DNA of 63,892 nucleotides, counting the filler, from Hausera hauseri (Eukaryota), in the NCBI GenBank assembly GCA_046269625.1. It is 12 parts of 12 records of this genome, joined end to end, with 100 filler letters (N's around TTAATTAATTAA, not from the genome) between each part and the next. Parts side by side here need not be neighbours in the genome. Positions count along the whole stretch, not along the records: positions 41,458 to 45,722 come from JBJURY010668441.1; 11 more parts are not named here. One strand, 5' to 3'. How positions within the stretch are numbered: position 1 is the first letter of the stretch; every line of letters starts with the position of its first letter. This document shows positions 6,336-57,400 of the stretch, piece after piece. A program made the translations under genes and the position numbers. The notes under the pieces were generated by a model. That model worked only from the letters and a program-made list of their open reading frames with translations, was not told the DNA's origin and ran no database searches.

Positions 6336-6342
6336 GTAGATA

Positions 6343-30359: not shown

Positions 30360-30499
30360 ATGACAGAATACGTCTTATGTTGTTTGTTCCTGAAAGTATT
30401 TCTCCTCCTTTAGGCTCGTCATAATCTGAATTATTTCTTAGCGTATTAGGTTTTGTAAATTTCCCCTTGTACAAGAACATAGGCCTTCCTTTTCGTATA

Positions 30500-32330
30500 C
30501 GATTATAATAACCGACATGGCGTTCTACTTCTAATTTCCATCTATTCCCTTCGTATGCTTTTAAGAACTTTCCAAAAGGCGTTATGATTGCAATCAGTAT
30601 TTTACATGAAAATCCGGTTAACGTAAATATTTCATAGCCATTTATTACTGCTTGGATGACTGCCTTAATTAGCTGGATTAAAAAATATATCGCTAAAAAT
30701 CCAGATGCAGCTTGTCAAAAAATTAAAAATCTGCCCCAAATTTTATAGAGTATTTCTGTGGTTACTCGTTGGTAATGGTTTACTTTGAGCCAGGATTCCC
30801 ATTTAGCTTGATATCGAGTATCGTTTACTATGGATGACATGGTTCGATTCAATTCGTGCGTTCGTTGTAGTGGGAAAGCAAGGAATTGTCTAAAAGCTTC
30901 GATTTCCTTTGGCCTGTAAATTCCTTTTGATGAAATGTCCTGGAATTTATCATCTCTGATTCCCTTTACAAGATTAGTTCCCGTTAACTTAATTGGAGCG
31001 GCAGTGATACCTCCGTTTGGCAAACTTACCCAATCTGTTTCGCTGCATCTAAACATTGGTTCTCCTAAGCTTGCCTTACAATTCTTAAGGATCATTGGCT
31101 AAGTCGCGTTATCTAACAATACTGTAGTAAGTGGCATGGCTAGCCGGGAAATATTTTTCTATATAACCGGAAGTTCATGTATACACCGATTCTCTTCGAC
31201 ATCGATCGATACATCCCTTTTTCACATTCGTAAGTAAATAAAATCTCACCGGTAACTCGCCCGAAAATTCTTTCTCTCATAGGAATTATTGGTGATGCTA
31301 ACTCGGGGTTAGAAAAAATGAGAGCTAGTTTTGTTCTCAGAATTTTCATGATTAGCTTACAATCATTCGTTATCATTTTATGGTATAGTTAGGTTATTCC
31401 AACTTGTCCTTTGTAGTAAAAATAATCGTCTCGATTTTTCAAGTAATCTTCAATACGAATATCCTGTGCTTCGAGTTAATAAGTCTAGCAACGTGAAATA
31501 ATTTCATTTTTAATAAGTTTCAGCCCATGTATATCAGAGATCAGTATCGTGGGGGTAGAATGCTCTGCCATGTCTTCGCGCGTTCTTGAGTTACCGTCGA
31601 ATTTATCCACATACCGCTTCCCGGTGGTTTCATTGAATTTCAGTTCCTTAATTTTCATAAAATTACAGTTTCTTCCATAGAGAGGTTCCAATATTATAAC
31701 GTAACTTCTAAAAGCACACATTCCGTCTTTTAAGTGGCAATTTTAATTCTCGGTATACAGTTTAATAACACTGTGAAACATCACTTTCTGTACTCGCATG
31801 TCTGATTCATAGAAATATACAACTACCACGTTCGATTGCAGCCCCTTTCCGGTGTCGTACTCTGACCCATTACAGTGTCCGTTATGCATATCTAGACTCC
31901 AAGCTATTACTTTATAAGTTTTAATTATCTTTCCTGGTTGTATTTCCAGTTCCATACTATCCCATTTTAATCTTTCTGTTTCTTTCGCCTGTTTACAGAG
32001 TTGACGTTCTAAGCTCATAAAAATTACAGGAGTTATTGGTTTGATTATCGGCGAATGTCCGTGCATTAGTCTTCAATGGAAAACTCTACGTGATCGCTGT
32101 AACATACACTACATTCCATCCAGTGATATCAATTCTTGTTTTTGGTGTAGGAAATAACTTTTCTCTTTTGTTTTTAGTTTAGGCGGTCTAGCATATTCGC
32201 ACGCTTCTAGGTCCATTAAGGAGTATTTCTGTCCAAGTTTAAATCTATCACAGTCATAGACCGTAACCGCACCCATCTGTTTTATCAACATCATCAATGT
32301 TAGCTAGCTAATTAATCAGTTCTATTCGTG
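30500..32330 (-). pseudogene. Chuvirus/Jingchuvirales-type envelope glycoprotein (env-like), upstream of the pol on the same strand
   Basis: Signal-like hydrophobic stretch, then VYDCDRFKLGQKYSLMDLEAC. Later motifs: LYHKMITNDC, FGRVTGEILFTYEC, SKGIYRPKEIEAFRQFLAFP and TM ILYKIWGRFLIF*QAASGFLAIYFLIQLIKAVIQAVINGYEIF. Homologous by eye to 43680-45560. Confidence 0.75.
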
Positions 32331-35300
32331 TCTCCATTTACTGTTATCTGTTGTCATCAGATTTCGTAACATGTCTTCGAGTCTGCTACCATTATCGAAC
32401 AATTTTGTCCAGTTTACCTATTGGGGAAAAATCTTAGCCGTACTTTGTGCCAAGCTTGTAGTTCTGTTAAATTCATTTTCTCGACTGGGATTCGTTTTGA
32501 TAACTATGTACAGAAGTACTTTTCTCAGTTCTTCTATCGTGTTCTCCACCATAATTTTTGCGGTCACTGTTTCATCGGTTAGACTACTTTTTGATAACTT
32601 AAACCAAGAATTTATCATTATTCTANNNNNNNNNNNNNNNNNNNNNNNNNNNNNNNNNNNNNNNNNNNNTTAATTAATTAANNNNNNNNNNNNNNNNNNN
32701 NNNNNNNNNNNNNNNNNNNNNNNNNTGTGTTAACATATCACTTTTTTTTGTTTGTTTTGTTTTTCAGTCAAACCAGAAGCAGGCATAATTATCACAAGAC
32801 CCAGATTGTTGACACTTTTTTCAGCTGCTTAAAACCGTTTTTAATCAAATTTCACGCTTTTTCCAAAGTGCACGGAGAAGGAAAAAGGATCATTGGAATG
32901 ATAAGAAATTTCATTGTCTGTCTTTGTTTTTGTAATATTGTAACAAACGTTTGACGTTATTGTTAGAAATGACTCTTTATAATCTGATTAACTCGTCTCG
33001 AGCTGCAAACCGCTTCACCGTAGAGCTAAAGGACAGTTTTATTCTGTTTATTCTCACGGTGGAATCAGAATATTTTAGCTGACGTGTATTTATTTTTGTT
33101 GGCAGATGGTTTTGATCCTGACTTTGTGATTCGTGTGTTCAGTTTCGACCCTGCTATGCACCTGCTCTTCTCAGTGCTTAAAAGATGATTTATGTGTTAT
33201 GGTCACATCGAATTTCAGCAGCTATTGGTCTGCCGCCTTTTGGGACATAAAGCAGCGGTTACAAAGTGCCGCAGGCTCGTTTGGGAGGCGGCACAGACAG
33301 AGAAGATCGGCATCATATAACTGGACCGGGCAAACGCCTGTCCAGAGGGCTGTTACAGCAGTTTGTTTGCTCTTACACTCAAATGAGTTATGGACACACT
33401 AAGGGAGGGAAGGCTGGCAATGGCTGCCATGAATCTTGTGTTGTGAGGATAGGTTCCCTCGACTTAAAGTCTCTAATAACAGTGAAGAGAAAATTGAATT
33501 TATCTGCAAAATCTTCAACCCCAACGTAAGTTCCAACTTGAAATTTTGTTAGTAAATCAATGAACTGAGATGCGACCACTATAATTAAAAATTGAATTAA
33601 TTGTAGCTGTGAAAAATGTGACGGAATATTTACAAGTATAAGTTATGTCATACAAAATGTATAGTTCACACACACATAGTGTAAAACATACAATCAATAT
33701 ATTTTTACTTTAGTTCTGGTTGATTAAATATTTATGTGTACAATGTATTTCACATAAAATATTTATGATACAAACATATATTTTAACATATTGAATACGT
33801 GGTTTAGAGTTTGTTTAGTTGTTGATTGAGTACTCATTTGAGAATGTTTCATGTACACACATATACAAGGTCCGGCAGAAACAGTTATCCATTTTAAATA
33901 TGATATGTTTCAGAATTTGACGATAAAATAATGGTTTGTTACCGCATACCGTACAAATGAACATTTCATAGCTTTTCCGAGCATGTAAATCACGGTAATC
34001 TGATATCCACCGTTGCTGGCACTGCAACCTGCCGCATGAACTCCCACATTCGCCATTACTTCATGTGGGATTTTATGACGTATTCATGCCCCAATTTATG
34101 TTTGAATGTTCGTTAATTCCCAAATGATTGCTGGCCAGTTTGACCAGACTTTGGAGATCCTTGCAGAAAAAAAGGCCAAGAGATCGAGGAGACTAACTGA
34201 CATCGCCAAGCCGGGAAAAAAAATGATTTGGAAGTGATTCAATAACAAACGAAAAGTCAGTACGCAAAGGTAACTGGCGTGGTGAGTTGCTGACTGGTTG
34301 GTTTGCACGGGCCTGGTTAATCGATTGTTGGGTGCTGGCGATTTCCTGGTTATTAGCTAAAGCAATTCTCGTTCCAGAAGCACTGCTTAGTAACGTGATT
34401 GATTGATTTCTCCGCATAATCAAGGGTGAGCTTTAGATCTTTTGCATGAGACCTGAAACGGGCAGTTGTAGTCCTAAGAAGTCCTTCTTAGGAGGATGCA
34501 GCTCCATCTCGTTGGTGTCTAGGAAGTGGGTCGGGGTTCTCCCGGCGATAGTGCAATGCTTGCCCTCACGGACGTGTTCCGCCACTCGTCACTCAAATCT
34601 CTGCCCGTTTGCTGCAGGTTTCCCTACCGTTGCCTGGGGATACAGCGCGGACGTGGGCAAGGAGCTGCGAGGCATGAGGAACACGCAGGAGACGCAAGAA
34701 GGATCGTGAATTACCATCGAATTGGAGTTGTGAATACGATTAGAGAAATTCTGAGGAAGAGGTACGATCCCTTATGTTTCTGCGCGGAGTACAAGGACAA
34801 TAATCTTTGTTCAAACTTGATACTTGAAAAATGTTACAGAAAGAACGAAGAGAGAAAGAAATAAAGAAACAAACAAACAAACAAACACAACGCAGGACGA
34901 GACGTCATTCAAAGACAATCCATAATCGGATGATTAAAAATTTTCAAAATATTTACTTTGTTTAAAAAGAAGCACTGCATAGATAACAGTCCGGATATCA
35001 AACAACGAAACAGAAACAATTGTTCTTCAATCAATTGTCACGCTCCGTGCGGATGAATTAATTTTGTTTCAGGCAGAACACGTTCGTGTTCCTTGTAGAA
35101 CATGCCATATCTACGCTAATCTGTTTCGCCTTAAAATAAAATTGAACAAATATAGAAACATCAACAGACAATTATTACATAAATTACGAAATATGTATGT
35201 CTTCCTTTTTGTGGGTGATCCTGGACAATTTTTTGCTCGTCGTTCCCGAGTACTAGGTAGGATAACGGAGAGTAAGGCTACAGACCAAGTTTGATTTGCA

Positions 35301-36951: not shown

Positions 36952-39200
36952 AATCGTCTTGTCTCCAATGTATCTTTCAACCATAGGTTGCATTATATTT
37001 CCTGTAAAATTTGATTCTTGGTCAGTCACTATAATTCTGGAAGATCCCAACCTATCGGGTGAAAAAGTCGATAAAAACCAGAATGTATTTATTCTTAATT
37101 TGTCTGACATTCTTGATAGGTAATCGGCGTTAGCATTTCATTTTCCGGGTTTGTATTGAAAGCTTGAAGTATAAGGTTGGAGTTTCAGAGCCCAACGTAA
37201 TAATCTCCTACTAGGATTATCATGTTCTTTTAACCATTGAAAAAATCGATGATCCGTATATATCAATATTTGTTTATTTGCAATAATATATGGTGAGAAT
37301 ACTTCTAGTGCAAATATTACGGCTAACAATTCCATTTCAATAACAGCATATTTCTTTTGGCGCTTGTTTAATTTTCTTGATGCACAAGCAACTGGATATT
37401 CTTTTCAATCTTCACCCTTCAGTGATAATACTGCTCCAACTCTGCAGTCACTTGCACCAGTTGCTAATATGAACGATTTAGTCATGCTGGATAAAGTAAA
37501 ATTGGAGCACTTAATAATCTTTCTTTTAAGTTTTTGTAAGCCTTCTGGCAGTTGCTTTTCCATAGCACTTTGTCTAAATCTTCGCGTAGTAACTCGTAGA
37601 GTGGCTTGCTAAAATCTTTTATAAACTTTCGGTTATAATTTGCAAGTCCTAGAAATCGGCGTAATTCTTGTACCCTAGTTGGTTTCAGAAAATCTTTGAT
37701 CTTGTCAAATAGCTTGTCCTGTGGTTTNNNNNNNNNNATCTTTCAAGTGGTGTTAAAAATTTGATGATGCTATGATTATATCGTCAATATAAACCATAGC
37801 ATGAGGTGCGTCAAAAGTAGTAATTCCGTTCCTCATTGAAAAGTTGGTGGTCTATTTTTTAATCCAAACGGCATTCTATTAAATTCCCATAATCCTTCAC
37901 CTGTCTAGAAGGCCGCTTTTGGTTTATCTTCTTTTACTTCTACCTGCCAGTACCCTTTCTGTAAGTCGATGGTGGTGAATATCGTTAAGCCGTGTAATTT
38001 ATCTAACATTTCATCTATCCTTGGTAATGGATACTTATCGGGTTCCGTTATTTCATTGAATGCTTGATAGTCTATATCGAATCTCATTGTTCCATCTTTC
38101 TTTTTGACTATTACCACTGGGGCTGTCCATGGGGATCAGCTTGGTCGTATTATCTTATTCTCCCCCATTTCTTTTATAATTTTTCGAGCTTTTTCCTTTT
38201 TATCGTATGATAATATATATGGTCGTTTCTTTATTGGTTTATTTTGCCCGTCTTTTAATTTAATTGCATGTTGTATTATATTCATTGTTCCTAAGTCACA
38301 AGCATTCTTAGCGAATTAACATTCCTTTTTCTTCCTTCGTTAGAATGTTGCAGTTTCGCAATTTTTCTTCCCAGTTAATATTGGAAACTTCTTTTCTCCT
38401 TTATTTTTGTTTGTTTCCTTCTTTAATTTTTCCGTCATCATTTTCTCAACCTTATCTATATCTGAGAGTACCGAATTGACTGCTTTTTTGATATTTCTTC
38501 AATAGCCGTTACCTGTCCAAGTGTCGTATTATTTCTCAGTCGTTTTTCTTTGCTTCCGGTATTGCAAATTCTTAAATGAATTCTTCTTTTTCTTACTCTG
38601 TCTGCATGCGGCGCAACCAGTATGTCATATTTCTCCATTAGTTGAGAATGGTTCAAAATGTACGTACATCGTTGGTGATGTACATTCTAGTCTGCCGGGC
38701 ACTACTACTTCGAAACGCGGTGGAATTATGACATCCTTTATTAGTGAGACTGATCCTTCGTATTGATCTTTGCTGAACGTTGTGAGCTGACCGGTTTTTA
38801 CATCGATGTACGTATTTTCTAATTGGTGTAATACGTCATACCCAATATTTCATTGCTAAGGTTTTTGACTCCTCTGACGGTGTGGTTTATCTTGTGGTCA
38901 CAAATCTTGATCTTTGCATCCAAGACCATCTTTATTTCTTCTTCCCTACCAAATGCTCGAATGTTGACCAGTGTTTCCGTTGGCTTCCACAATTTCTTTA
39001 TTAATTCTTTAAGTAGTTGATTTCTTCCCATTATTGTAGTCGTGGATCCCGTGTCTATTAGTGCAGTTAGTGGATATCCATTTACTGCGATATCTATTTC
39101 TGGTCTCATAAAGGACTGTGATCTATTTTTATTACTTGTGTCACATGTAGGTTCGCGTTTATAAGGTGTGGGGTTTTCCTCAGACTTTTGTTTCATTCGC
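36952..39200 (-). mobile_element. Decayed Ty3/gypsy pol (PR, linker, RT, RNase H, integrase fragment)
   Basis: YPLTALIDTGSTTTIMG; VIVKKKDGTMRFDIDYQAFN...DKYPLPRIDEML...TTIDLQKGYWQV; VYIDDIII; ELLAVIFALEVF...YTDHR...RLLRWALKLQ; integrase-like IIVTDQESNFT after an internal deletion. Confidence 0.9.
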
Positions 39201-39752
39201 AACACTTGGTACGTGGTATTGGTTTCAATAATCCCATTAGAGTCGTATCGAAAATTTGACACACACCAGCGCCGCTACCATTCAAGATTTTCGATATTAT
39301 TACAGTGGGTGATAGGTCATTACGGATAGTATTGTTGATGTCGTCCAATTTGTCTGACGCGTCAAATCCATTGAAATGACATTCAGGAAGTCGCTCTCTT
39401 AAATCAATTGGCAGTGTATTAAGTTTTCCCGTCAGAAATACCTTCTGATTGATCTGTAACAACTGAACAGCAATGAGACAATGTGATGCCGTGGACTTGA
39501 GCCAGAAGAGCCGATTTATCAAGAAAAATAATTCCGGCAATCTGTATCAAATATTTTCAAAAGATTGACGAATGGCAAAGTTGAACAACTCTAATGCGAT
39601 CCGGAATCTACGTCATTAAAATTATTCATTGAAAGTACGGTTTACGCAACATGTTGAAATTCTCAAATTCTAGATTATCTTATCTAGTAATTCAATTATC
39701 GAAAAGTATCAGGAAAATATCATAAAAATCTGGAACGTATAAATGAAAAAAT

Positions 39753-39925
39753 ATGGTTAAGATACTATGTCACAGCTGCTCTAAAAGGTGTGTTGGCGAT
39801 GTCTTGAAAGTAAGTGAACGATATTTTCATCTGGACTGTTTTCAATGCAAAGATTGCACAAAAAACTTGAGTACTGGCGGTTTTTTTATCGTGATGGAAG
39901 TTACTATTGTACTTCAGATTATACG
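39753..39925 (+). CDS. ABLIM1: N-terminal LIM domain of an actin-binding LIM protein (abLIM/UNC-115 family), 1-nt frameshift in a T-run
   Basis: MVKILCHSCSKRCVGDVLKVSERYFHLDCFQCKDCTKNLSTGGFF. Adding one T to the T7 run at 39881-39887 gives YRDGSYYCTSDY, completing the LIM domain as in abLIM proteins. Confidence 0.75.
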
Positions 39926-40729
39926 AATAGATTCACTCGGAAATTGGTCGTTTTGGTCACAACGGCCTTCTACTGGATCAAAAATTATTTCGTACGCTGA
40001 ATTGGTTGCAAGGCATCAAAAAAATGATTAAAGGCCTTGATTTTGAACCGACTAGAGACGTATCTATCGACTCAAGAATTTCATCAGTTATTTAGTCTTA
40101 ATAGAGCGGATTTTTATAGACTTCCGGAGTGGAAACAAAATGATCTCAAAAGACGTGTAAAATTGTTTTGACAAACTTTTTTTCAGATTATAAAGATTCT
40201 TTTTCCCCCGTTAATTTTGGAATATGCATCTGATTATTTCCTTTTTTAATTAATTCTACAACTCTCAGCTGTGATTTCTTATTTACCCGTTATTTGAAAC
40301 TTATGGAGTACTGCAATTTAGTCAAATAATTTCTGTGTTAAAGATATACTGTTTGTTACTTTAATTGTTTTCGTGATATTTTAGTCTTTATTTCAAGCAG
40401 AGAATCTACGTTTTTTTTCGTTCGTTATATGTAACCAGAAATACAAAAGGAATCAATAAAGATATTGAATTCCGACGGATAGAATTTTTATTTGAATTTG
40501 AATGCTAGGATACAATTTCTGATTTGCCTGTCTTTACCAAACGATAATAGAAAGGAAGATGAAGAGGAATACGAGATCGTTCAATCGAGGTGATAAACTG
40601 TTTCATAAATTGAACGATAACGAATTAGATCGAGAGGAAATTATGTCAAAACAGCGAAATGCGAAATAATTTATTGAATTTCAACATACCCGAGAGAATT
40701 GAAGTTGCAGACGTAATATTAAATGAAGC

Positions 40730-41155
40730 GTTTAATGCAGTGCATCACACATGTCAGGTCTGACTTTGTCCGTTCTGGTGAGTGGTTTTTGCTTCATGAT
40801 AACACTCCGGCACACACTGTATATCGCATTATTTAGAAAAAATATAAGTTACCGTACTTAATCATCCTCCTTATTCACCAGATTTGGCACCAGCCGACTT
40901 TTTTATTTCTAAAGTTGAAACTTCATATTAAAGGTCTAATGTTTGATGATGTTGATGACATTAAAACAACTATGACAAGGAATTAAAGGGAATTTTGGAA
41001 GAACAGTTTTCTGATACCTTTCAGTCGCTGTATCATCCTGCAAAGTTGTGTATTGAACGAGAAGGGCGCATGTAGAAAGTTAGATAAATTAAGATTTTGG
41101 AATGTAATTATTTGGTTTTTTATTCGCACAGACCGGGAACTTTATTGCCATACTA
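40730..41155 (+). mobile_element. Decayed mariner (DD34D) transposase C-terminus with right TIR-like end
   Basis: WFLLHDNTPAHT...VTVLNHPPYSPDLAPADFF...KLKLHIKGLMFDDVDDIK. Confidence 0.85.
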
Positions 41156-41457
41156 TATATGTTGCTTGGAAAACAAAAGAGTAATACTGGTTTAAAGTGA
41201 TATATTATAATAGCCAATGATAATGTTTGTTGGTAATAAAAATGTCTTGAACAAACGACGTAGAAAGGTAGCATGTATTCTGTTAACACTGTTAGTGTCT
41301 CACTGTCCGAAAAATAACATTATTCAATAACATGGAAATTGATCGCAACTGCATTATNNNNNNNNNNNNNNNNNNNNNNNNNNNNNNNNNNNNNNNNNNN
41401 NTTAATTAATTAANNNNNNNNNNNNNNNNNNNNNNNNNNNNNNNNNNNNNNNNNNNN

Positions 41458-43300
41458 CTCGTTCAATTGTTGACCATTTACGCTGTGTTTCGCTTAACGT
41501 TTTACTAAGACATTCTATTATTCCCTCACGTGGTCTATCAGGTACTGCTTGTCTTAAGACTGCTCCTATAGCATAACCACTGGCATCAGTCATTATTACA
41601 TAGGGATATTTGTGATTAGGGAATTTTAATATTGGTGGTGAAGTTAGTACTTGTTTTAAACCTTCGAATGCTCTCTGTTGTGTTTCTTCCCAAATCCATG
41701 TTGTTCCCTTCTTAGTTATTTCTACTAGAGGTTTAACTATACTTGCAAAATTATAAACAAATTTCCTGTAATAATTGGCCATTCCTAACAGCCGTTGTAA
41801 TTCTTTAAGACATTTAGATGGTTTTAACTTTTTAAGTTTTTCTACATTTCTAAGGTCAGGTTGAATACCTTTGCTTGATACTATATGTCCAAGAAAGGTA
41901 ACTGTATTTTTAGCAAATTCGCATTTTTTCATTATTATTTTTAAATGAGCTTTCTTTAATTTATCAAACACTAAAGAAATATGTTATAAGTGTTGCTCGA
42001 AGTTTTCAGAAAATATTATTACATCGTCTATGTACACTATGTAATGAGTTAATCCTTGTAATACAAAATTCATACATCTTTGAAATGTAGCCGGTGCTCC
42101 TGTTAGACCAAAAGGCATAATATTGAATTCCCATAATCTAGTTTTGGTTGAAAAGGCTGTTTTCTGTTTATCTTCTTCAGCGACTTCAATTTGCAAAAAT
42201 CCACATTGTAAATCTAGGGTAGAAAATACTGTGGCATTTCTTAATGCTGTTAACATCTTATCTATTTTTGGTAATGGATAATTGTCTTTCTTCGTAAAAT
42301 TATTTACCGCTCTAAAATCCACACAAAATCATTGTGCTCTATCTTTCTTTTGTACTAATACTACTGGGGATGTCCATGGTAAAAAGTTTGGTCAAATAAT
42401 ACCATGTTCCATCATTTGTGCTATCTGTCTATCGCATTCTTCTTTTTTAATTTCTGCCATTCGATATGGATTTTGTTTAATAGGGTAGGTGTTTTTCGTA
42501 ATTATGTGGTGTTGGATAACGTTAGTTCTACCAATGTCATTATCATTCATAGCTATGATATCTCGATACTTGTGAAATAACTGCAATAGTTTCTTTAATT
42601 GATATGGGGTTACGTCACCATTTTTGAATTTTATATTCTGGTTTTCTACTAAAAATGTTGCTGCACATACCTTGACTGGTTGCAACTGTCCTAAATTGAG
42701 GTTCTGCCGTAATTTGATTTCCTTCTTATTAATGCTTTCTCTTGGTAATTCTAAACATTGTACTTCTTTCGGTACAAATATAGGATATTTCAAAATCTTG
42801 TATTTCTCATTATTATATAAATTTGGTTTAAACATACAAGTTTGTTTATGATAATGTGATGGTATTTTCAGCATTACTACTATCTGCTGTTGAGGTCTAA
42901 CAATAACATCGTGAGTTAAGGTCATGCTAATTTCCTCAATTGGCAAATTGGTCATCGTATATTTTAGGGTTTTGGCAGATAGATCCATCGAAAGTCCTGA
43001 AATTTGAGATAATATGTCCATTTCTATTACCAAAGGTACATGCAATATTTTATCATCCACCACGAACAGAGTTATGGTGTATAAATTACCATCAGTTTTT
43101 ATTCTAGTGCTTATTTTTCATAAAAACTGTATTTGTGTAGAGTTAGCTGCTGCGATTACTACATCGCTTGCATAATTTCTGCCTTTTGATCATCCGTTAA
43201 ATATGAATGTCGGATCATCGACACGGATGCACCGGTATCTAACAGTGCCATAATATTTAATCCATTGAATCGTACCGGAATATACAGGTTATTTCCTGTT
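41458..43300 (-). mobile_element. Ty3/gypsy-type pol (PR, linker, RT, RNase H)
   Basis: ALLDTGASVSMI (DTG at 43231-43239); DFRAVNNFTKKDNYPLPKID, FSTLDLQCGFLQI, WEFNIMPFGLTGAPATFQRCM, VYIDDVIIFS; RNase H YVIMTDASGYAIGAVL. Confidence 0.95.
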
Positions 43301-43679
43301 GCTATTTTAGTTTGATTCATAAAAATAAATTTTGTATTATTTCGTCGGTTATGTTTGGTATTATATTGTCGAAGTACATTTGGTGGGTAAGCAGTACTTG
43401 GTAGGCAGATGTATTTATCTGAATCTCTTATTAATGGAAGTTCATACATGGATGTATCTTTCATGTCTCTACGATCTAATTCTGGGCATTTATCGATGGG
43501 TTCATGTTTATAGTATGTTGGTGCTTCTGGCTCAAAATATTTTCTTGCTTTCTTTCTTAACAATTTATACTTAACTAAGTATTCTTCTACAGTCAACTTA
43601 ATAAAAGCTTGTAGCTGTTGTTCTAGTTCTGGGGCTAAGAGAAGTTCTTTCCTTAATTTATTAAGTTCCTTTGCATGCC

Positions 43680-45560
43680 AATACATTAATACTGACTTAG
43701 CCATTGAAGGGATACAACCCAACATGATTTGCCATGTACAACCGCGTACTTTCTTTATATTTCCGGCAGCTCCTTTTTGTCTTAATATAACTAATACAGT
43801 AGTGATTATAACGTATATGCCAAAGATTCCAGATATTACTTGGCCAAAAATGAGGAATTTATTCCAAAAATCATAAAGAATCTTCTTAGCTGTTTTTTCC
43901 AAATGATCAACTGGAAATAAAATTCCGTAATTAGGTGTTCCGTCTGATCCTTTTAAAACAATGTATACAAATTCCGTTATTACCTTTTCTCGGATATTTT
44001 GAAATAATACTTGTTTTCTTACTGCTTCCAGGTCAGTTAACAAATATAATCCACTGTTAGGAAGTTCTCTATTTACCATAATTTCATTCCTTTATCTAAT
44101 GGTAGTAATCCAATTGTCTGTTGTACGTTCATCATAGTTGGTGGACGTGTTTTAGTCCATCTTTCATCACTAAGCTTAAAAGCTGGATAAAATTCTTTGT
44201 AGCATGGTGCGAAGGTAATTTCCGTAGGTAATAAGAATTTACGAGTAATAGGGTCTAAATATCCAAATTTGACAACATTTTTATCATTATATTGAACCAT
44301 TAATTCATTCGTGCAATTTGCTCTTGTAGATGTTATAGGCGTCACTTCTATCGGTGGATATTGATATACATGGAGTATTTCCCCTTGTATTCTACCAAAT
44401 GTTCCGGGGCGATATCCCATGATTAGAGCAATATGTCCAGGAAACTCTCTCGCCAATATCAAATCATGTTGGTTTAATTTTTATGTGATTTTGCAATCTC
44501 TTATTACCATCACGTTATACAGTTCAACTAAATCCTTTTTTGCAGTATGATAAATATAATCTATTTTGTTATTCGTATATAAGTACCACGTTATATCCTC
44601 AGTTGGTAATTTCCAGTACTTGCTAAAGTATTTTTTGTTACAAAGAGATCATCATATGATGTAGGATAAACGGCATTTGATCCACAAGTTGACACTGCTC
44701 CTTTCCGTGCTAATACTATTCCATCTCTGTCGTTGGATGACATCAAAAATTTTAAAGAAGCTGTCTTCTGTAAAAACCGTGGGTCGGGTAAATTTTTGTT
44801 ATGGTTATGTACAGATTCTTGATATTCGTCATCGTAATATAGATCACCTTGTATCTCATACATAAATATTTATTTTAGAAAAGCTAATGGACATATCATA
44901 ACTGTTTTCTCCCAAACTAATATAGATTCTCCTGAAGTACACACTCCATCAGAATATGTACAAGATGGTGCCGTCAGCATTTTTCCGGTAATTGCATCAA
45001 AGTTTACTTTATATTCTTTTATCGTGACGGTAAAATCTTCTATTTGCACTACAGAGGATTCCTTTTGTCCATTTATCATCATGGTTTCTCCATCACGGCC
45101 CCATCCATATACGGGCTATATTTTTTTAGCTGTAACTATCCGTGAATAAACTCGTTTTCCTATGCTTGCTTGTACTGGCTGCTTTAATCCTACTTGAATT
45201 GAATCTGTGGCTTTTCTACAATCTTCAGCAGTTATTGTTACAGGTTTTGGCAATCCTGGTGGAATAATTACGGAATTCCATGAGTTATGGCCACAATTAT
45301 AAGCAAATATTACTTTATTAACCTGGCATTCCTTTATTTGAACTTGCTGATAACTAATTCTTTTGTACAAATTTTAATTATAAGGACCCTCCTTCTTTAC
45401 TGATATTGGATTTGCATTTTGACATTTACCTATATCTACCAGTGAAAGTCTAGCTGTTATCTCGGGTTTAGAACAATCATAGGCTTCTAATGCTGTCGTA
45501 GTTTTTAAGCTGCTAACGACTATCAGGTATAATAACAAATGAATGATTTTTACTACCCAT
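43680..45560 (-). pseudogene. Chuvirus/Jingchuvirales-type envelope glycoprotein whose TM and tail run in frame into the protease
   Basis: Signal peptide WVVKIIHLLLYLIVVSSLKTTTA, then LEAYDCSKPEITARLSLVDIGKC; AYNCGHNSWNS; CTYSDGVCTSGE; YTNNKIDYIY; FGRIQGEILHVYQ; CTNELMV; NSGLYLLTDLEAVRKQVLF; TM FWNKFLIFGQVISGIFGIYVII. ORF 43159-44079 contains both the TM region and the LLDTGA protease motif. Confidence 0.82.
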
Positions 45561-45822
45561 TCTGAGATATTGGTATCCTTGGGTATATTAAGGTTGTAGG
45601 ATTAAATCTTTTAATAATTTCATCCCAACCACCGTGTTTCGTTACCCTATCTTTTGTTAACCTATCCATTTGATATGCCAAATCCTTTACTATATGGTGT
45701 AGCTTGGCGTCGACCTCTGTTTNNNNNNNNNNNNNNNNNNNNNNNNNNNNNNNNNNNNNNNNNNNNTTAATTAATTAANNNNNNNNNNNNNNNNNNNNNN
45801 NNNNNNNNNNNNNNNNNNNNNN

Positions 45823-47830
45823 ATCTCCCAATTCACGGCCATCATTTTTCCAGTTGGATCATGGAGAACCAACGCTTCAAATGGGATATTGACCTTCCCA
45901 TTCTTACTTAGCAAATTCATTTTTACTCTCTCTATTTTTTACTTTGTTGTTCCTCCACCTACCACCATGACAGACACGTTTTCCAGACTCCAAACTAATT
46001 TCAGTTGCTCTGCGACAGATTGTTTTACGAAGCATTCTGTACTCGCGTCGTCCAACAACATACACACCTTTACTCTTCGTTCTCCACTTTCCAACCATAT
46101 ATCCACAGTACGCAGTGCTATTTTATTTCCTGTTGGGGCCTTTTCTGATCGTCAGGTCACGTAAGAGCTAACTTGCGCCTCTAAAACATCACCTTCGCAT
46201 TCATCCTTTTTTTTCCTTAATTCTTCATTACCTTGCACAGTGTAAAATGTTCTTTCTTGTTTTTTGGATGTATTTTTCTTAGACGGTGAATCATGAGCAT
46301 AACGACATTTTTCTCCATATTTGCAATTTCCTTTCACATAATACTTACAAACTTGTGTTTTACTATTTCGTTCATTAATATACAGATATTTACAATTATT
46401 TCCAAATTTGCAATTTCCGCTTTTCTCGAACTCCCAGCATATTTGGTTTTCGGCTTTGTTCATTGATTTAATACTATTATCCTTTTCCGTTTTGTTTGGA
46501 ATTGACGCCTCATTCCTGCTGACATTTTTGTCTACATAAATCTTCTTTTTGATTTTCTTTGAAATTCATGTTCTTTGGAAAGTATATGATTTTTATTATA
46601 AGCGAGAAACCGTTTTTCAACTGTCATCTTATTTTCATCGTACGTCCGATTAGACTCATATTCTCTTCCTGGATTAAAGGTGTTTATACCTCTGATTCTT
46701 TCGATTGTATTTCTTCGGACACTTGCTTCTATCTCTACCCACAATTTTAACTCCTCAACTGTACGATTTGACTTCTTTTTAGCAACATGTCTTTCTCATA
46801 ACAATACTATGGACTCTGGGAGCTTTTCAATTAGACTTTGATACAACAGTCCTCCACATAATTCTTCCTTCCTCCCGAAATTTTGTAGTCTCGCTGTTAT
46901 GCCATCTAATAATGCGACAAACCGATCTAGTCCTTTGATATCCTCTTCTCTGATTGGTTTGAAGCGCATCACCTCGGTCATAAAGGCAGCATAACACCGT
47001 TGCTCTCCTCCGTAGTAGGAGTCAAGCGTTTCCATCGTGGCTTTATAACCTACTTCATACAGGTCGAAGTTTTCAATTAACCTTTTCGGTTCACCATGAA
47101 GACATTGATTTAATTGCAATTGTTTGTAGATGTCAGACATTGGCGTCTTATGAACGCAAGTGTCAAACGTTCTTTTCCATTTATCATATTCTGTAATTAT
47201 ACCGCCGAACTTTGCGAGTTCTAACTTTTGAAATTTTGGTAGTACAAATTTTACTTTTACATCACTATTCGCCCCTTTTGCTTCATTAATCGCCGATTTG
47301 CTTTCTCGTGAGCTTCTTTCGTAAATAATTGTATTAATTTTTTCGTTCTGTTCGTCTGACTTCTCTATTTCATTTTCCAAAAAAGTGATGTTTTCTTTCC
47401 TTTTTAATTTCCTTGCAGCGGCTGCTAATATCCCCAAATTTTCCTGCAGGTCTGAAAAAGTTCTGTCGTATCATTGTTGGAACATGCTATATTCCTGCTC
47501 GTTCAAATTTATATCCATCAACTTTCGCCGGATAGTCGCCAAGTTATTTATGGGTTTTCGCCTTTCGGCAATACGTTCTTCTAATTCGTCTGCTGTCATT
47601 TCGCTCCCTCTCTTTAGCTTTAACGTTAAGTGAAGTGTTGCAACGTGTCTTAAACTTTTCACTGATCCGTCGGTCCGTAGCGGCTTTCCGGCATGTAATA
47701 GACTGAATTCCTCGTTTATTCTCAAGATTTTCTTTATAATCCCAATTAGATCACAATATGACTGAGTTTCAGCTAAATCTACCACGAAATTACGTCCACC
47801 ACAAAGTACGATTACTTGTTTTCTTATTTG
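45823..47830 (-). mobile_element. Decayed BEL/Pao LTR retrotransposon 5' part: UBL - coiled coil - DUF1759-like Gag - 2x CCCH finger - protease
   Basis: LPKFQKLELAKFGGIITEYDKWKRTF...LNQCLHGEPKRLIE...YKATMETLDSYYG is DUF1759-like Gag. CWEFEKSGNCKFGNNCKYLY and CKYYVKGNCKYGEKCRYAH are the CCCH fingers. Protease: IALRTVDIWLESGERRVKVCMLLDDASTECFV. UBL and Gag are in one frame, separated only by a TGA at 47471-47473. Confidence 0.88.
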
Positions 47831-49940
47831 TCCAACTCTGTTTTCCGAAATCTTGTTTACCCTTTTTTCATTTATTCTTCCTATCTGATATGGCGACTCT
47901 ACCCCTCCTAATTCCCCATCTTCAAAAAGATTCGAAATATTTTTTGAATTTACACAGTTAGCTTGTATCTCTACGCTTAACTTCTCAAACTACTTTTCAA
48001 CATATTGGAGTTCCGGACATCCGATGATTTCTTGTAATTTATTTAATCTATTATGGTTCTTTGTTTCAAACAAATTTCGTTTATAACACATTTCTTTGAT
48101 ATCTGTTACAGACGATACTGTCCGCCGATAGCTAATCTCTATTTGTTTAGAGGCATAGACCTTTGATACATTTTCTTTTAAATTTTTATTGCCCTCGGCA
48201 TAATGTTCTACAACTCCCCAACTTAGCGTCACTCCTGCAAGATAGTCACGGCTTTTCCTTTTATTCGTTTTCTCATAACTCCTCACCGTACATATTTTGC
48301 AAAAGATTCTCGCCTTTATTTCAAACTTAGAATGGAATGAACAAGAACCGAAAACGAGGAAACAGACATAAAGACATCGGAAGACAAATGCTTCACGTGG
48401 TTTGTACTCGCGGATCACACCTCCTAACTCGTCCTGGTTGCTACACATGTTAATTTATAAACCTTTCTAAATTTCCAAGTTTCTTTATTCAATATATTAT
48501 TATATAAAAAACATTTATATTACTTTACATGCATTCCTGACCATTGTTCTCGCGGTGTCTCTCCGCGGGGGAATATTTCCACCGTTAAGTATAATCATCT
48601 GCTCAGACATTCCGATTTTAGCAGACACACAATTCCTGTCAACATTCATGGAAACAAAAAAGAAACGATAACGGAAAACCATAATATTAATACAACATCC
48701 GACATTAACTAACACTTTCCATTCTATGTGCTCTATCAGATTTTGAATCACGATTTCTAGTCTACCATCAAATTTTTCCAAAATCAATTTCTCTGTCAAT
48801 ATAATACCGGCAATTAAGTGTCTTCCGATAGCTTTTCGTTTCTTTTCCCTTCTCTCTCTATTCCCCGGGGAATATCTAAACATATCCATTCATTTTATAA
48901 ATTTTAATTTTTCAATGACAGAACGTATGAAACTATACCGATATGATTTCCTCATATTTTTATTACGTATTTCCATATATATAACTTTCCCAGTTGAAAA
49001 ATAATGCAATATTTGCGAACTGAAATAACGCATTTCGGACACATTCATTTTATGTTTCTTTTGAGGCATTTTTCCGACTGAGTTTTATCTTTTTTCGAAG
49101 AGAAGCGAGACACATGTCCCCTGAATCTTTCTAAATCATTATATGTAAATTTATTTTCAGCTTTCTTAATATTTATACAGAATCTTATTTGAAAAGATAG
49201 TCTAGGATGAATAGATAAAAACATTCCAAGTGTAATCTTCCAGAAATAAAAATATGATCTTAATTACTCTAAGAATAAATTTAGGCAATATGCCAGGTTT
49301 TGAATGTCAGATGCTTTTAGATAATAATTAGTAATTTTCCCATAACATGTAGAGTTGCAAACTAAATTTTTAATTCAAATGCTAAATATTTTGTTTATGG
49401 TAAACTACTGTGCTGTATGTGACATCTTCCTCTTTTGCTTCTTTCTGTTAAAAAAGAAGTAAAAAAGGAACTTCTGCTTCTTCATCCTGCTTATTTACAA
49501 TTGACTTGTTATTTTTAAATGTTTGAAGTGCAATTTCTGCACATTGTGCCAGTTTTCTAAGTGTCATTAATGTATCATACTTTTTCACTTCTTTTTTCTG
49601 ATAACAATCCTTTGATTGCTGGTGTAAAGGAACCATTCATTGTGTTGAATTTTTTTTTGAAAAATATTATTAGATAAAGATTGTTTGCATATCTGCTTAC
49701 ATAATTAATCTGTTTATGCAGTGGCGATAACCATCCCTTCTCCTCCAAACTCCGTCTATATCTTTAAATCATTTTTTATAAAACTTTGTTAACAATAATG
49801 CTAATGAATATAAATGAAAAAGGATATACAAAAGAAANNNNNNNNNNNNNNNNNNNNNNNNNNNNNNNNNNNNNNNNNNNNTTAATTAATTAANNNNNNN
49901 NNNNNNNNNNNNNNNNNNNNNNNNNNNNNNNNNNNNNACT

Positions 49941-51185
49941 GTGTGTTCACTGAATAGCCAAGATTCTTTCAATCCTCAGGCATGTAGTCTTGGAGCTTCG
50001 GCACGTGGTAATGACAGCAGTTCTTTTAATCCTCAAATTTATAGTTCGGCTATATTAAATGAAAATCAGGGTATTGAAAATTGGATGAATGATAGCGATT
50101 CTTTTAGCCCTGATCTATTCGGAGTGGGATCTAAAGGTTGTATGAATGTGAATGAAGATCAATGTCCTTGTGCCAAAGGTACTGTGTGTTCACTGAATAG
50201 CCAAGATTCTTTCAATCCTCAGGCATGTAGTCTTGGAGCTTCGGCACGTGGTAATGATAGCAGTTCTTTTAATCCTCAAGTATATAGTCTTGGATGTTCC
50301 AGATGCGGTAATGACAGCAGTTCTTTTAATCCTCAAATCTATAGTTCGGCTATATTAAATGAAAATCAGGGTATTCAAAATTGGATGAATGATAGCGATT
50401 CGTTTAGCCCTGATGTATTCGGAGTAGGATCTAAAGGTTGTATGAATGTGAATGAAGATGAATGTCCTTGTGGCAATAAAGGTACTGTGTGTTCACTGAA
50501 TAGCCAAGATTCTTTCAATCCTCAGGCATGTAGTCTTGGAGCTTCGGCTTGTGGTAATGATAGCAGTTCTTTTAGTCCTCACGTATATAGTCTTGGATGT
50601 TCCAGGTGCGGTAATGACAGCAGTTCTTTCAATCCTCAGGCAGGTAGTCTTGGAGCTTCGGCTTGTGGTAATGACAGCAGTTCTTTTAGTCCTCACATAT
50701 ATAGTCTTGGATGTTCCAGGTGCGGTAATGACAGCAGTTCTTTCAATCCTCAGGCATGTAGTCTTGGAGCATCAGCATGTGGTAATGAGAGCAGTCAGCG
50801 TGATGACCAAATAAATCGTCTTTCGTTTGATATCCCACATGACGAATCGTCAAATGCGGAAATCCCTTGTGCTGCATTTCTCATGTACAATTCTAGTTCC
50901 AATAGTAAATCTCTCGAAAATTTGGTATACAAAGGGAAAAGTGTGGATATTGAAATAAAAAATCCTCCAAAACCCATAATAAAATGTTACCCAGACGGAC
51001 TGTGCAGTCTGAAATATGAAATCAATCCGAAATTTATTCTCAACATTTCCCGAGTACCATTGCAATATATTGTGCAAGGTGATTGTGAGAATATGTCAAA
51101 TTCACTGAACGTTCCATGTCTTCAGAAGGGTGCAGTACAAGTGTCTTTTAATGAGTCATCGAAGGACATAGTCGAACAGTGTTAA
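49941..51185 (+). CDS. Cys/Ser/Gly/Asn-rich tandem-repeat protein, 5' truncated, unknown function
   Basis: Open 414-aa ORF with 19-aa (57-nt) repeats SSSFNPQACSLGASACGND nested in ~81-101-aa higher-order repeats. Unique C-terminus, with AATAAA at 51305. Confidence 0.7.
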   Translation: MCSLNSQDSFNPQACSLGASARGNDSSSFNPQIYSSAILNENQGIENWMNDSDSFSPDLFGVGSKGCMNVNEDQCPCAKGTVCSLNSQDSFNPQACSLGASARGNDSSSFNPQVYSLGCSRCGNDSSSFNPQIYSSAILNENQGIQNWMNDSDSFSPDVFGVGSKGCMNVNEDECPCGNKGTVCSLNSQDSFNPQACSLGASACGNDSSSFSPHVYSLGCSRCGNDSSSFNPQAGSLGASACGNDSSSFSPHIYSLGCSRCGNDSSSFNPQACSLGASACGNESSQRDDQINRLSFDIPHDESSNAEIPCAAFLMYNSSSNSKSLENLVYKGKSVDIEIKNPPKPIIKCYPDGLCSLKYEINPKFILNISRVPLQYIVQGDCENMSNSLNVPCLQKGAVQVSFNESSKDIVEQC

Positions 51186-54487: not shown

Positions 54488-57400
54488 CAATAGTTCTTTC
54501 CGAGTAATACAATATCCTTTTTCATGGCTGTTCATTGTGTGTGATCCGTATGCAATCACTCTCTTGCGCCCCAAACTATCCTTCTGTGACTGTACAGCTC
54601 CAATTGTGTCGAAGCTTGCGTCCATAACGAGGATAAATTCTCTGTTGAAATCAAGGAAACCTAATATTGGCGGTGTGGCCAAGGCTCTTTTCGTTGACTC
54701 GAAAGCCTCATTACATTGCTCGGTCCATATTAGTATCTTGTTATTCAATCCTCACAGTTTCTGCAGTGTCTTGGCCTTTGCTGTGCAACCTTGGATAAAT
54801 CTTCTGCAGTAGTTGCAGATCCCTAAGAAGCTTCGCAAATTCTTGACACATTTTGGTTTCTAGAAAGATTTAATTGCTTCCAGTCTGTCTGTATCCTCTT
54901 GTAATTCACTACGTGCCATAAAAAGTTTATTTCTTTCTTCAGGATGTGACATTTCTTTGGGTTCAATCGGAGACCTGCTTCCCGGATCCGTTGCACTACC
55001 TTTTCTAGTATCCTATAATGGTATTCTAGAGTCTTGGAGAAGATTAGTATTTCATCGAGTTATACCACTGTTTGTTCAATGTTTCCTAGTACTTTATTCA
55101 TTAGTTCTTGGAAGGTGCCCGGGGCTGCTGCTATACTGAATGGCATCCGTTTGAAACAGAATTGCCATAATTTGGTTGAAATCGCCGTCTTCAATTTGGA
55201 GTCTTCCTCTAGCTCCACTTGATAGTATGCATTGCCTAGATTGATTGACGTGAAAAACTTGATCCCGAATAACCTGTCCAATATCTCTATCACGTTAGGC
55301 ATGGGGAAGGCCTGCCGTTCCGTTATAAAATTTAGCTGTCTGAAGTCCAAGTATATTCTGACATCGTTCTTGTCTTTCTTCCATACGCATATCATTGGTG
55401 TATTCCATGCTGAGTTGCATGGCTTGATAATGTCGTTTTCCCATAGGTTTCTGATGATCTTGTCGTTCTTTTTCTATAACTTTACTTGTTGCTTATAAGG
55501 TTTGATACTGACCGGCGCTCCTGTCGTGTCTATTCGATGTTTGATGAGATGTGCACCCTATGTCCCACTTGTCGGCTATTAATACTTCTGGACATTTCTG
55601 TATAATATTTAGTAGCTCTTTGCTGTCACTCACCTGAAGAGCTTTCTTCACCCTGTTGACTCGTTCTTGGTTACTCACTTTATGGCCTAACTTGGCTTCC
55701 AGGTTGCACATATGTTACTGTAATGTTTCTGTTTCCGTGCGTTTCCATTCCAGTTCTATTCCGAATGCCTTTTGCAGGTCCGCGCCACCTATTATTTCTG
55801 GGCGTAATTCTCACACTACCAGGAATATTACACGACTCCTTAGACCCTTGATTTCTATATCTGTTGTAAGTGTGCCCAGGCAATCTAAGGGGCTATTGTT
55901 CGCGCATCATAGTGTGGTATCCAATTTCTCTATGTGTGTGTTTGCAAGTTTATCTACGCTCTTCTTGCTTATAACGTTGACGCTGGCCCAAGTGTTTAAT
56001 AAGCAATCTTCCCATCTGTCTTGTATCTTTAATTTAATTCCTGATCGTCCATTAAACTTCCTGTATGATATCTGTTCGACGCAAAATTCTTCTAGCGTGA
56101 CGATCTGCGTATCGTTCTCATTTTCCTTCATTCCGTTGAAGGATACTTCTTGGAAATTTTCCGTTTTTATAAATGTCCGTACTTTTTCCTGTGTCCTTTT
56201 ATCCATCAACATATCTCCGTTTCGCTTTCTTCTTGATCTATCTATATTGTTTGATATACTACTACTATTATACATAACGATATTTTGGGACACGGAATCT
56301 ATTGTAGTGCACCGATTTTCGCCACTTCTGTCGAGGTTCTGCCTTTTTGGACAACTGACTCCTGTTCCAATTCTGTTTCTTCTTTATCTACGTTTGCGAT
56401 TCTTCCCCTCCCCGTTTTCTGTTCATATTATCCCCGTATCTTCTTTTGACGTTGTATATATCCCATCTTGGTTCTCTTTTCCCCTCCAACCTGGTGTAGA
56501 ACTCCGTTTCGGTATGTCCCCTATGGTGATATCTTGCAAAGGTACGGTTTGTACAATTTCATCTCATGTGCCCTAGCTGACCACATCCGTAACAGCTTAC
56601 TGGCTTCCTTTTGAGACACTACATGATTATGTGTCCTTCTTTTCCGCATCCAAAGCATTTAATCGGTCTCAATGTGGTGCAAGTTCTGCTCGTATGTCCT
56701 TCCTTCTGGCATGTCCAACACTTTTATCCACTATTTGGTGGTCTAGTTTGCGTCGCCTTGATTCTTGGAACTGGTTTCTTGATATTTTGTGCTGCCACTT
56801 CCTAGTAGCTTCTTCTACCGATCCCCGAATACTCCTTAACCGTGTTGACATCTTCTGCCTTAATCTTTACCTCCTGTATCTTCCGTATTTTCTCTTCATG
56901 GTTTCCGCATCTCGTTTGTCACTGAGGCAAATTTCTCATCTCATCTCTCTATTATTACAACATTGGAACAATGGTTTCTCTTTCAGAGCATCGCGAGAAA
57001 GATCGTGATTCATTACTTTATCCAGCAGTTTCTCAATTGCCTCAAAGTAAGCTTCCGGTTCCGGTCCATTCATTCTGTACTCGAGCGCTTCTTTCAGATC
57101 TTCGCACAGCGTTGAGAGTCGGGCGAAAACCTTCCGTAGTCGGTTTTGATATCCACTTATTCTCGCATCTACTGCCTCGTACCTTTCAAGTGTTTCTTCC
57201 TCCAAGAGGCATTCAACCATTATTTCGTGCTTTGCCGCCGGGGTGTTCATATATTTAAAGAATTTTTCACATCCTTTAATGAACTTCTCCACGTCGTCGC
57301 CTTTACTGAATTTGCTGGGCAACAATTGGTTTGCGAAAATGTCCATTGTGGCGCAAGTCACCATGTTGGACGCGGACACGTCCACGCCGTCCACCTCGTC
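54488..57400 (-). mobile_element. Decayed Ty3/gypsy LTR retrotransposon: gag with 3-4 CCHC knuckles, PR, RT, RNase H
   Basis: Gag 57394-56936; knuckles CWTCQKEGHTSRTC, CFGCGKEGHIIM*C and CYGCGQLGHMR*NC; PR CLLNTWASVNVI (degenerate DTG); RT YLDFRQLN...NLGNAYYQV...FKRMPFSIAAAPGTFQ; RNase H FILVMDASFDTIGAV. Confidence 0.93.

Follow-up and report, generated by a model that had tools for sequence, protein, structure and literature searches.

The locus analysed here raises the question of what precedes an envelope gene that lies ahead of, and in frame with, a Ty3/gypsy pol. The sequence-only reading was that of an Env-first element, with Env where Gag sits and Gag located upstream, elsewhere, or absent. 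The contig is very probably the decayed middle part of an Env-bearing LTR retroelement of the Ty3/gypsy type. The host of the element is likely a flatworm, and its intact relatives likely make Gag, accessory domains, Env, and Pol as one polyprotein.

Organization and coding state of the contig

The window, that is, the whole stretch of 63,892 nucleotides that was analysed, comprises 12 unrelated contigs with N/TTAATTAATTAA spacers in between, and the element spans exactly one of them (41458-45722, 4,265 bp, minus strand; Table 1). On this strand, a PF24664 glycoprotein is followed by a TM helix, an LLDTGA protease, a reverse transcriptase (RT) with a YIDD motif, and RNase H, and the domain order first proposed was confirmed by the PF24664 pieces, the LLDTGA motif, and the RVT_1 and RT_RNaseH_2 matches. 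The contig copy carries eight in-frame stops and four frameshifts (near 45580, 44612, 44077, and 43170); it is dead and non-coding and belongs to a many-copy family.

Table 1. Features of the element, listed in the direction of the minus strand.
Feature	Position	Strand	Remarks
Last 48 codons of pre-Env domain, weakly Bcl-2-like, with BH2-type GGW motif	45577..45720	-	Cut at contig end; frameshift near 45580
Internal hydrophobic segment (signal anchor) up to YDC start of ectodomain	45482..45568	-	No in-frame Met ahead
N-terminal half of class III fusogen ectodomain, with fusion and PH-like domains	44612..45481	-	3 stops; PF24664 E 1.4e-17
Ectodomain, middle part	44076..44612	-	1 stop; frameshift at each end; PF24664 E 6.5e-18
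Stop-free frame of 310 codons: ectodomain end, TM helix, cytoplasmic tail and linker, protease N-half	43162..44091	-	
TM helix; protease D-T-G	~43783-43839; ~43242	-	Both inside the 310-codon frame
Protease C-half and possibly dUTPase-like linker domain	42662..43174	-	Frameshift near 43170; 1 stop
Ty3/gypsy RT with YIDD motif, followed by RNase H	41459..42620	-	3 stops; cut at contig end

The uninterrupted 306-aa ORF that had been said to hold both the glycoprotein TM and tail and the protease was recovered as well, 306 of the 310 codons of the open frame being counted from an ATG at 44079. A frame of this length was reached by none of 500 base-shuffled contigs, in which the longest frame averaged 94 codons. 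The ATG sits on a frameshift and is not the true start, and the first 48 codons of the contig continue the Env-containing protein upstream, across a frameshift. What had been read as a signal peptide is an internal hydrophobic segment, with no in-frame Met ahead of it and a protein that continues upstream, and the several TM helices were reduced by the hydropathy scan to one strong C-terminal helix.

The envelope glycoprotein

The Pfam profile search detected PF24664 (Monjiviricetes fusion glycoprotein) in three colinear pieces that lie in three successive frames, covering profile positions 6-286 (E 1.4e-17), 302-457 (E 6.5e-18), and 470-606 (E 1.3e-13). The N-terminal half of the ectodomain keeps nine of the ten family cysteines, and its predicted model (pLDDT 69.8) matched class III fusogens in all of the best 10 of 50 PDB rows, led by HSV gB (Z 7.7, rmsd 7.5, 206 aligned), while the next unrelated row reached only Z 3.9. 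Foldseek ranked a chu-like virus glycoprotein first (E 2.5e-14). As had been supposed, the ectodomain belongs to the chuvirus/gB-type class III fusogens, and the profile, PDB fold, and Foldseek results agree on this point. A hydrophobic segment before the YDC/FDC start is present in 10 of the 10 relatives printed, the 20 residues after the TM helix carry a net charge of +5, and no furin motif was found in Env. A plain endogenous chuvirus element was rejected as an explanation; Env precedes the protease and shares its frame, and neither a viral nucleoprotein nor an L protein was seen in the contig.

Protease, reverse transcriptase, and RNase H

The LLDTGA aspartyl protease motif is in frame with the TM helix. 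Downstream, Pfam matches identified RVT_1 (E 6.3e-33, with YIDD) and RT_RNaseH_2 (E 1.4e-20). Among PDB chains, the RT matched the Ty3-G Gag-Pol chain 7q5b (E 2.6e-71) far above foamy-virus Pol (2e-33), MLV-type, and HIV RTs (HIV RT ~1e-6). The pol is of the Ty3/gypsy (Metaviridae) type, in the order protease-RT-RNase H. A BEL/Pao identity was rejected on account of the gypsy-type RT and the position of Env upstream of pol. The RT tree had none of its six branches starred as supported and contained no named reference sequences. The contig ends inside RNase H, and an integrase follows RNase H in four relatives.

Between protease and RT, the region 42662..43174 is colinear with the relative P0154 from residue 1460 on. 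A profile of this linker (A7) retrieved dCTP deaminases in three of four PDB rows with a best E of only 0.96, and no Pfam match was found in the linker domain. Locus scans across viral, metagenome, and genome contigs yielded no usable locus.

The region upstream of Env

The closest relative of the contig, P0005, aligns in four colinear blocks of 58-79% identity, among them 44076..44612 at 58% and the Env part of 43162..44091 at 79%. It carries 1,330 in-frame residues ahead of Env, and the contig segment 45577..45720 is 65% identical to its residues 1285-1332. P0005 starts in low-complexity sequence rich in R/N/D/S. Its other end follows closely on the TM helix, so that the protease junction is not seen in it; neither a Gag capsid nor a CCHC knuckle was found in its upstream region. 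In more distant relatives, Retrotrans_gag was detected in P0027/P0040 (E 1.7e-4) and CCHC knuckles in P0006, P0014, P0019, and P0027, in frame with Env, and P0014 runs from knuckle to integrase in 2,627 residues. Because neither Gag nor the junction is seen in P0005, we infer Gag and a single ORF for the sub-family of the contig from relatives that are 24-38% identical.

Alternatively, Gag may form a separate upstream ORF or be joined by frameshifting in this sub-family, the long ORF then consisting of accessory domains, Env, and Pol. This arrangement is improbable. It would suit the start of P0005 at a Met in what appears by eye to be a post-knuckle region, and the ORF arrangement GAG-ENV-POL, which PMC13524379 gives without stating fusion. 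However, the contig that encodes P0005 is 7,573 bases long and the protein may be incomplete, knuckles are in frame with Env in the four relatives named above, and the planarian element Burro is described as one ORF (PMC6431247).

The original proposal of an Env-first lineage with an Env-Pol polyprotein, taken with Gag absent or encoded elsewhere, is now very unlikely. In its favor, P0008, P0010, P0017, and P0041 begin only 150-210 residues ahead of Env and show no Gag, and the 1,330 upstream residues of P0005 hold no recognisable capsid; yet where a copy is partial or mutated, its predicted gene would be expected to have a short N-terminus. Six relatives (P0005, P0006, P0014, P0019, P0027, and P0154) have 390-1,365 residues ahead of the ectodomain, and in four of the six this stretch includes knuckles or Gag. 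Together with the lack of an in-frame Met before the hydrophobic segment of the contig and the upstream continuation of its frame, these relatives led us to reject Env as the first domain, and of the three placements of Gag initially offered, it is the upstream one that the relatives support.

The domain that immediately precedes Env may tentatively be called Bcl-2-like from its sequence. A profile of alignment A1, which was picked by its GGW motif, matched Bcl-xL/Bcl-2 in 58 of the 60 PDB rows listed (best E 0.0026), and Pfam Bcl-2 matched three of four aligned members (best E 2.3e-5), although these matches fall short of the curated cut-off; the 48-codon piece of the contig itself gave no Pfam Bcl-2 match and no significant PDB match. 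The predicted fold of the region is of low confidence (pLDDT 47.6) and found no clear structural match, its best hit (Z 6.2) being unrelated and the viral Bcl-2 BHRF1 appearing at rank 38 (Z 5.1, rmsd 4.4, 110 aligned); the ESM Atlas score was likewise low (0.77). A fold of such low confidence does not speak against a Bcl-2 domain. A profile from P0006, P0154, and P0014 retrieved ubiquitin-like or UBX domains in at least nine of ten PDB rows (best E 0.1), and P0005 matched the ubiquitin-like profile only at E 0.17. When residues 1030-1963 of P0005 were used as a query for homologs, no protein other than P0005 was retrieved.

The Env-protease junction

Among the 22 of 35 homolog hits that were scanned (13 short ones were left out), 13 contain both PF24664 and a protease family. 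The motif test found the TM motif in 33 of 41 proteins; wherever the protein extends at least 235 residues past this motif, as it does in 16 cases, a protease D[TS]G follows, at +131 to +391 (+209 in the contig copy), and the 17 without D[TS]G end within 137 residues. The 16 junction-bearing proteins fall into 13 clusters. Env and RT share one ORF in P0008, P0013, P0014, P0041, and P0154, with integrase in four of these. The joining of Env and Pol in one frame, claimed from the start, is thus upheld by the stop-free TM-to-protease frame and the single ORFs of relatives, and the TM-to-protease junction recurs in many relatives. A second contig of the window shows the same env, protease, and RT order and belongs to a different family.

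Judging from these homologous proteins, the junction is inherited and not a misassembly. The chance joining of a chuvirus-like endogenous glycoprotein gene to a gypsy pol, by misassembly or nested insertion, is hardly credible: the element is a high-copy repeat in a short-contig assembly, summed depth in the linker is ~4,300-4,500 vs 10,000-18,000 alongside, five low-depth skip joints fall in 43275-43665, and none of the aligned contigs listed spans TM to protease (loose ends at 43598 and 43637), but the skips reflect internal differences in length, a mere 1% of the aligned contigs continue into unlike sequence with 30 of 30 bins covered, and the recurrence of the in-frame junction at a like distance in 13 clusters largely refutes a misassembly at this site.

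Comparison with known elements

The layout itself has precedents. The Burro/GYPSM1 elements of planarians (Dugesiidae), described in 2019, are giant gypsy-like elements of 25-30 kb with env in frame between gag and pol in one ORF (PMC6431247). As described there, Burro Env is homologous to mononegavirus-type fusion glycoproteins, and a BCL2-like motif stands just before it, where the tentatively Bcl-2-like domain is found here; a ubiquitin-like domain lies further upstream (here weak and in relatives only), a dUTPase-like region separates protease and RT (weak here), and decayed copies with stops and frameshifts also occur (PMC6431247). In contrast, the giant size, LTRs, and MATH, BIR, and ankyrin domains of Burro are not visible in the 4.3-kb contig, the two having been compared by description and not by sequence, and the possible DEDDh exonuclease-like domain in P0005 is not among the domains listed in section 7 of PMC6431247.

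The gB-type GAG-ENV-POL 'ancient errantiviruses' (2026) were reported from Platyhelminthes, Nematoda, and Bryozoa, and the flatworm hosts given there are Macrostomum, Prostheceraeus, and Schmidtea only, with nine rows (PMC13524379). They share with the contig a Ty3/gypsy Pol, a gB-type class III Env before pol, an ectodomain between two hydrophobic segments, and the lack of a furin motif; cysteine spacing and motifs in domains I-II match, by eye, those of the six Schmidtea sequences that supplementary file 2 places in class C1a (PMC13524379). The contig copy is broken and, unlike those elements, would fail the intactness filter described there, and the text of PMC13524379 has no passage on 'Burro', 'Bcl', or 'polyprotein'. 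The in-frame env between gag and pol (PMC6431247) and the gB-type GAG-ENV-POL elements (PMC13524379) remove the novelty first attributed to the layout. Since the layout is published and the contig copy is dead, the element adds a family member and not a new layout. Literature searches on the 'gag-env-pol' layout led to PMC13524379 only and found nothing on Neodermata or monogenean gypsy envelopes.

Two further groups are more remote. Nematode NERV elements, reportedly described by Sacco and colleagues in 2022, are said to have a continuous gag-env-pro-pol ORF. They resemble the contig in having Env before pol (as cited in PMC13524379), but the nematode Env rows in the supplement of that paper are, by eye, much less alike, and the only host marker of the window groups with a trematode, away from nematodes. 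Mosquitoes harbor chuvirus glycoprotein EVEs and BEL/Pao elements with a chuvirus env (Dezordi et al., 2020, as cited in PMC13524379). They share the glycoprotein family PF24664 with the contig, and the best viral fold matches of our ectodomain are chu-like virus glycoproteins, whereas the RT here is Ty3/gypsy and Env is placed ahead of the protease in a common frame.

Proposed model, host, and implications

In an intact copy of such a Gag-accessory-Env-Pol element, translation would begin in Gag, in the cytosol. The internal hydrophobic segment may then act as a signal anchor that feeds the ectodomain into the ER, with a signal peptidase cut just before the YDC start, and transfer would halt at the C-terminal helix, leaving everything beyond it (tail, protease, RT, RNase H, and integrase) in the cytosol. 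The signal anchor would tie the Gag-side domains, and the Env tail would tie Pol, to the membrane until the element's protease frees both; anchoring of Pol in this manner is plausible and can reasonably be supposed. Such a tie would likely link the assembly of capsids to budding, with Env already positioned. For the Bcl-2-like domain, the signal anchor might serve as a tail anchor, and the domain may reduce the death of host cells. The available portions of PMC6431247 and PMC13524379 report no test of the processing of a twice-membrane-crossing Gag-Env-Pol polyprotein or of particle spread between cells.

The host is likely a flatworm and possibly a fish parasite. Another contig of the window encodes spectrin, and in a tree that contains no named planarian it clusters at 100/100 with six other rows and the trematode Heterobilharzia; this contig is not physically linked to the element, and the two are connected only by co-occurrence in one assembly. 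Tetranucleotide correlations of 0.68-0.91 did not sort the window contigs by host. With considerable doubt, the element could represent a distinct and once very successful single-ORF gag-env-pol sub-family in a fish-parasitic flatworm, outside the published free-living hosts, in which Env is preceded by a particular set of anti-defence modules (DEDDh exonuclease-like, ubiquitin-like, death-domain-like, and Bcl-2-like) and one hydrophobic segment serves both as Bcl-2 tail anchor and as Env signal anchor.

The relatives found here show that unannotated assemblies commonly contain the gag-env-pol layout and that Env is accompanied by varying cargo, including repeated proteases, ankyrins, extra TM helices, and a possible exonuclease. 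The published host range of these elements would be extended if the host is a parasitic flatworm.

Organization of the element

The gypsy-type element occupies a whole contig of 4,265 bases, one of 12 unrelated contigs that make up the window with spacers between them, so that the other parts provide no genomic context for it. On the minus strand, a 48-codon piece is followed by a hydrophobic segment, a Cys-rich ectodomain, a transmembrane (TM) helix, a linker, a protease, a second linker, reverse transcriptase (RT), and RNase H. One stop-free frame of 310 codons (43162–44091) holds both the TM helix and the active site of the protease, and none of 500 shuffles of the contig reached its length; together with the Pfam matches, this bears out the domain order and shared frame described in the sequence-only reading. 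The copy is non-coding because of eight in-frame stops and four frameshifts. Two of the contigs listed from X1, a non-independent sequencing run possibly of the source sample, read through the break sites at about 43170 and 44612 without gaps and with 0 and 2 differing letters, indicating that these two breaks are present in the X1 DNA.

Pfam assigns RVT_1 (E 6.3e-33) and RT_RNaseH_2 (E 1.4e-20) to the Pol region, which matches the Ty3-G Gag-Pol chain at E 2.6e-71, compared with 2e-33 for foamy-virus Pol and about 1e-6 for HIV RT. RT-RNase H identity to five Env-Pol relatives is 50–53%. An RT phylogeny of nine rows without a named reference yielded zero supported branches.

Envelope glycoprotein

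PF24664 (Monjiviricetes fusion glycoprotein) was matched in three successive, colinear frames (E 1.4e-17, 6.5e-18, and 1.3e-13), and nine of the ten cysteines common to 11 relatives are kept with identical spacing. The first 337 codons, with X at stops and 14 aligned rows, were folded to a pLDDT of 69.8. Class III fusogens made up all ten best of 50 PDB rows, including herpesvirus gB, rhabdovirus G, thogotovirus GP, and baculovirus GP64. The top row, HSV gB (Z 7.7, rmsd 7.5, 206 aligned), is modest as a single Z below 8, and the weight rests on the coherence of the list, in which unrelated rows begin at Z 3.9. The best viral Foldseek match was a chu-like virus glycoprotein (E 2.5e-14), in agreement with the proposed viral fusogen. 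No furin motif was found in the Env pieces of the window.

Recurrence of the Env-protease junction

The TM-to-protease frame was searched against 1.84 billion representatives and gave 35 matches. In the 22 taken for domain scanning (13 short ones were omitted), PF24664 was detected in 20, of which 13 also have a protease family. Adding six cluster members gave 41 proteins, and the TM motif is present in 33 of them. In all 16 proteins reaching at least 235 residues past this motif, a protease motif follows after 131–391 residues (after 209 in the window); the other 17 proteins, which lack it, all end within 137 residues of the TM motif. Five relatives run on into RT and four into integrase. The junction therefore recurs, and on this point the sequence-only reading is supported.

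In X1, 11,828 short contigs, most of them 85–95% alike, cover 30 of 30 bins of the element, indicating a many-copy family; 1% continue into unlike sequence. Counting against the junction, five low-depth skip joints lie inside the linker, with loose ends at 43598 and 43637, and none of the X1 pieces listed spans TM to protease.

Protease-like domains, in tandem or scattered, number two to seven in five relatives (P0006, P0008, P0010, P0041, and P0154), whose ORFs reach up to 4,844 residues and also encode ankyrin repeats, C2H2 fingers, and additional TM helices past integrase. The record of another relative, P0014 (HBK71150.1), a full knuckle-Env-Pol polyprotein, belongs to a Flavobacteriaceae metagenome-assembled genome, a bin that is likely contaminated with animal sequence.

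Region upstream of Env

The sequence-only reading had placed Env first, which is not supported. The hydrophobic segment has no Met ahead of it in frame, and P0005 (1,963 residues), the closest relative, aligns with the contig as four colinear blocks of 58–79% identity and has 1,330 residues in frame ahead of them; the 48 opening codons are 65% identical to its residues 1285–1332. Retrotrans_gag occupies the upstream position in P0027 and P0040, and CCHC knuckles occur there in P0006, P0014, P0019, and P0027. No capsid or knuckle was found in P0005, which ends right after the TM helix, so that for the sub-family of the window copy we infer Gag.

By sequence comparison, the piece ahead of Env looks Bcl-2-like: Bcl-xL/Bcl-2 accounts for 58 of the 60 PDB rows shown (best E 0.0026), and Pfam Bcl-2 matched three of the four members aligned, with a best E of 2.3e-5 that falls short of the curated cut-off. 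The 48 residues alone gave no significant PDB match, and the fold of the pre-Env region was uninformative. Ubiquitin-like and dUTPase-like signals are weak. Residues 355–800 of P0005 may form a 3'-5' exonuclease-like domain of the DEDDh type; the Atlas score of 0.88 is no more than a lead, and the rows include RNase_T and arenavirus nucleoprotein. Residues 1202–1275, immediately ahead of the Bcl-2-like helices, show a weak death-domain-like match (Pfam Death, E 0.025; NF-kB p100, E 1.1).

Other contigs and the host

Features of the window discussed in the text
Feature	Position	Strand	Remark
Alpha-spectrin gene, long exons	1–6567	+	70% identical to trematode Heterobilharzia protein
Second element, other family	27422–32625	-	More decayed; same env-protease-RT order
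Decayed gypsy protease-RT-RNase H	36952–41357	-	66% DNA identity to the main element over 290 bases
Main gypsy-type element	41458–45722	-	
BEL/Pao-like gag	45823–49837	-	DUF1759, E 1.2e-15
Cys/Ser/Asn-rich tandem-repeat ORF	49938–51182	+	415 codons

The second element has about 110 codons upstream in frame and then a YDC ectodomain, with an identity to P0005 of about 23%, followed by TM, protease, RT, and RNase H, and its env end is tandemly duplicated (30062–30360 and 30789–31087, 81%). On the decayed gypsy contig, no env was detected upstream of pol, and a segment near 39750–39990 is presumably a LIM-domain-like exon. The BEL/Pao-like gag, preceded by a possible ubiquitin-like stretch, has two CCCH zinc fingers (E 6.9e-15) after DUF1759 instead of CCHC knuckles, plus a protease-like motif; it lies on a separate contig and is not the gag of the main element. 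Contigs 22975–27321, 6668–13817, and 54488–59306 include two further gypsy-type remnants, as well as what we take to be a Tc1/mariner-like transposase piece and a Rab-like GTPase exon.

The spectrin is 51–62% identical to named arthropod and nematode proteins, and in a tree containing no named planarian it grouped with Heterobilharzia and six other rows with support of 100/100, and arthropods and nematodes fell outside this group. CpG o/e is 0.26 in 13918–22874, a vertebrate-like depletion, compared with 0.72–1.14 elsewhere (0.73 in the main element). This contig, whose ORF presumably resembles fish repeat-derived proteins, is likely vertebrate DNA, so that DNA of two or more animals is present in the assembly. 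The host is likely a flatworm and possibly a fish-associated parasite, the marker contigs sharing an assembly with the element and carrying no physical link to it.

Polyprotein model and relationship to known elements

Gag-side domains, Env, and Pol would be made as one polyprotein, in which the internal hydrophobic segment may act as a signal anchor. The ectodomain would enter the ER and be cleaved near YDC, and transfer would be halted by the TM helix, behind which the net charge is +5. Gag-side domains and Pol would stay cytosolic, tied to the membrane until released by the element's protease. The proposed membrane tethering of Pol fits this model, which extends it to Gag. The original observation is confirmed and its interpretation partly supported: a class III Env in frame with Pol at a recurring junction stands, and the Env-first order does not.

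The nematode elements of Sacco and colleagues are said to have a continuous ORF. In PMC13524379, GAG-ENV-POL elements with a gB-type Env are described from Nematoda, Bryozoa, and Platyhelminthes, and Sacco et al., 2022 is cited for the nematode ones; by eye, its six Schmidtea Env rows are nearer to the cysteine spacing and motifs of the window than the nematode rows. In planarian Burro elements, an env in frame between gag and pol has been described (PMC6431247). The element is a decayed copy, probably from a family with this already known single-ORF gag-env-pol layout, Burro-like in layout and not placed in Burro proper. It could tentatively represent a sub-family with cargo domains in a parasitic flatworm of fish, a reading that we consider rather unlikely.
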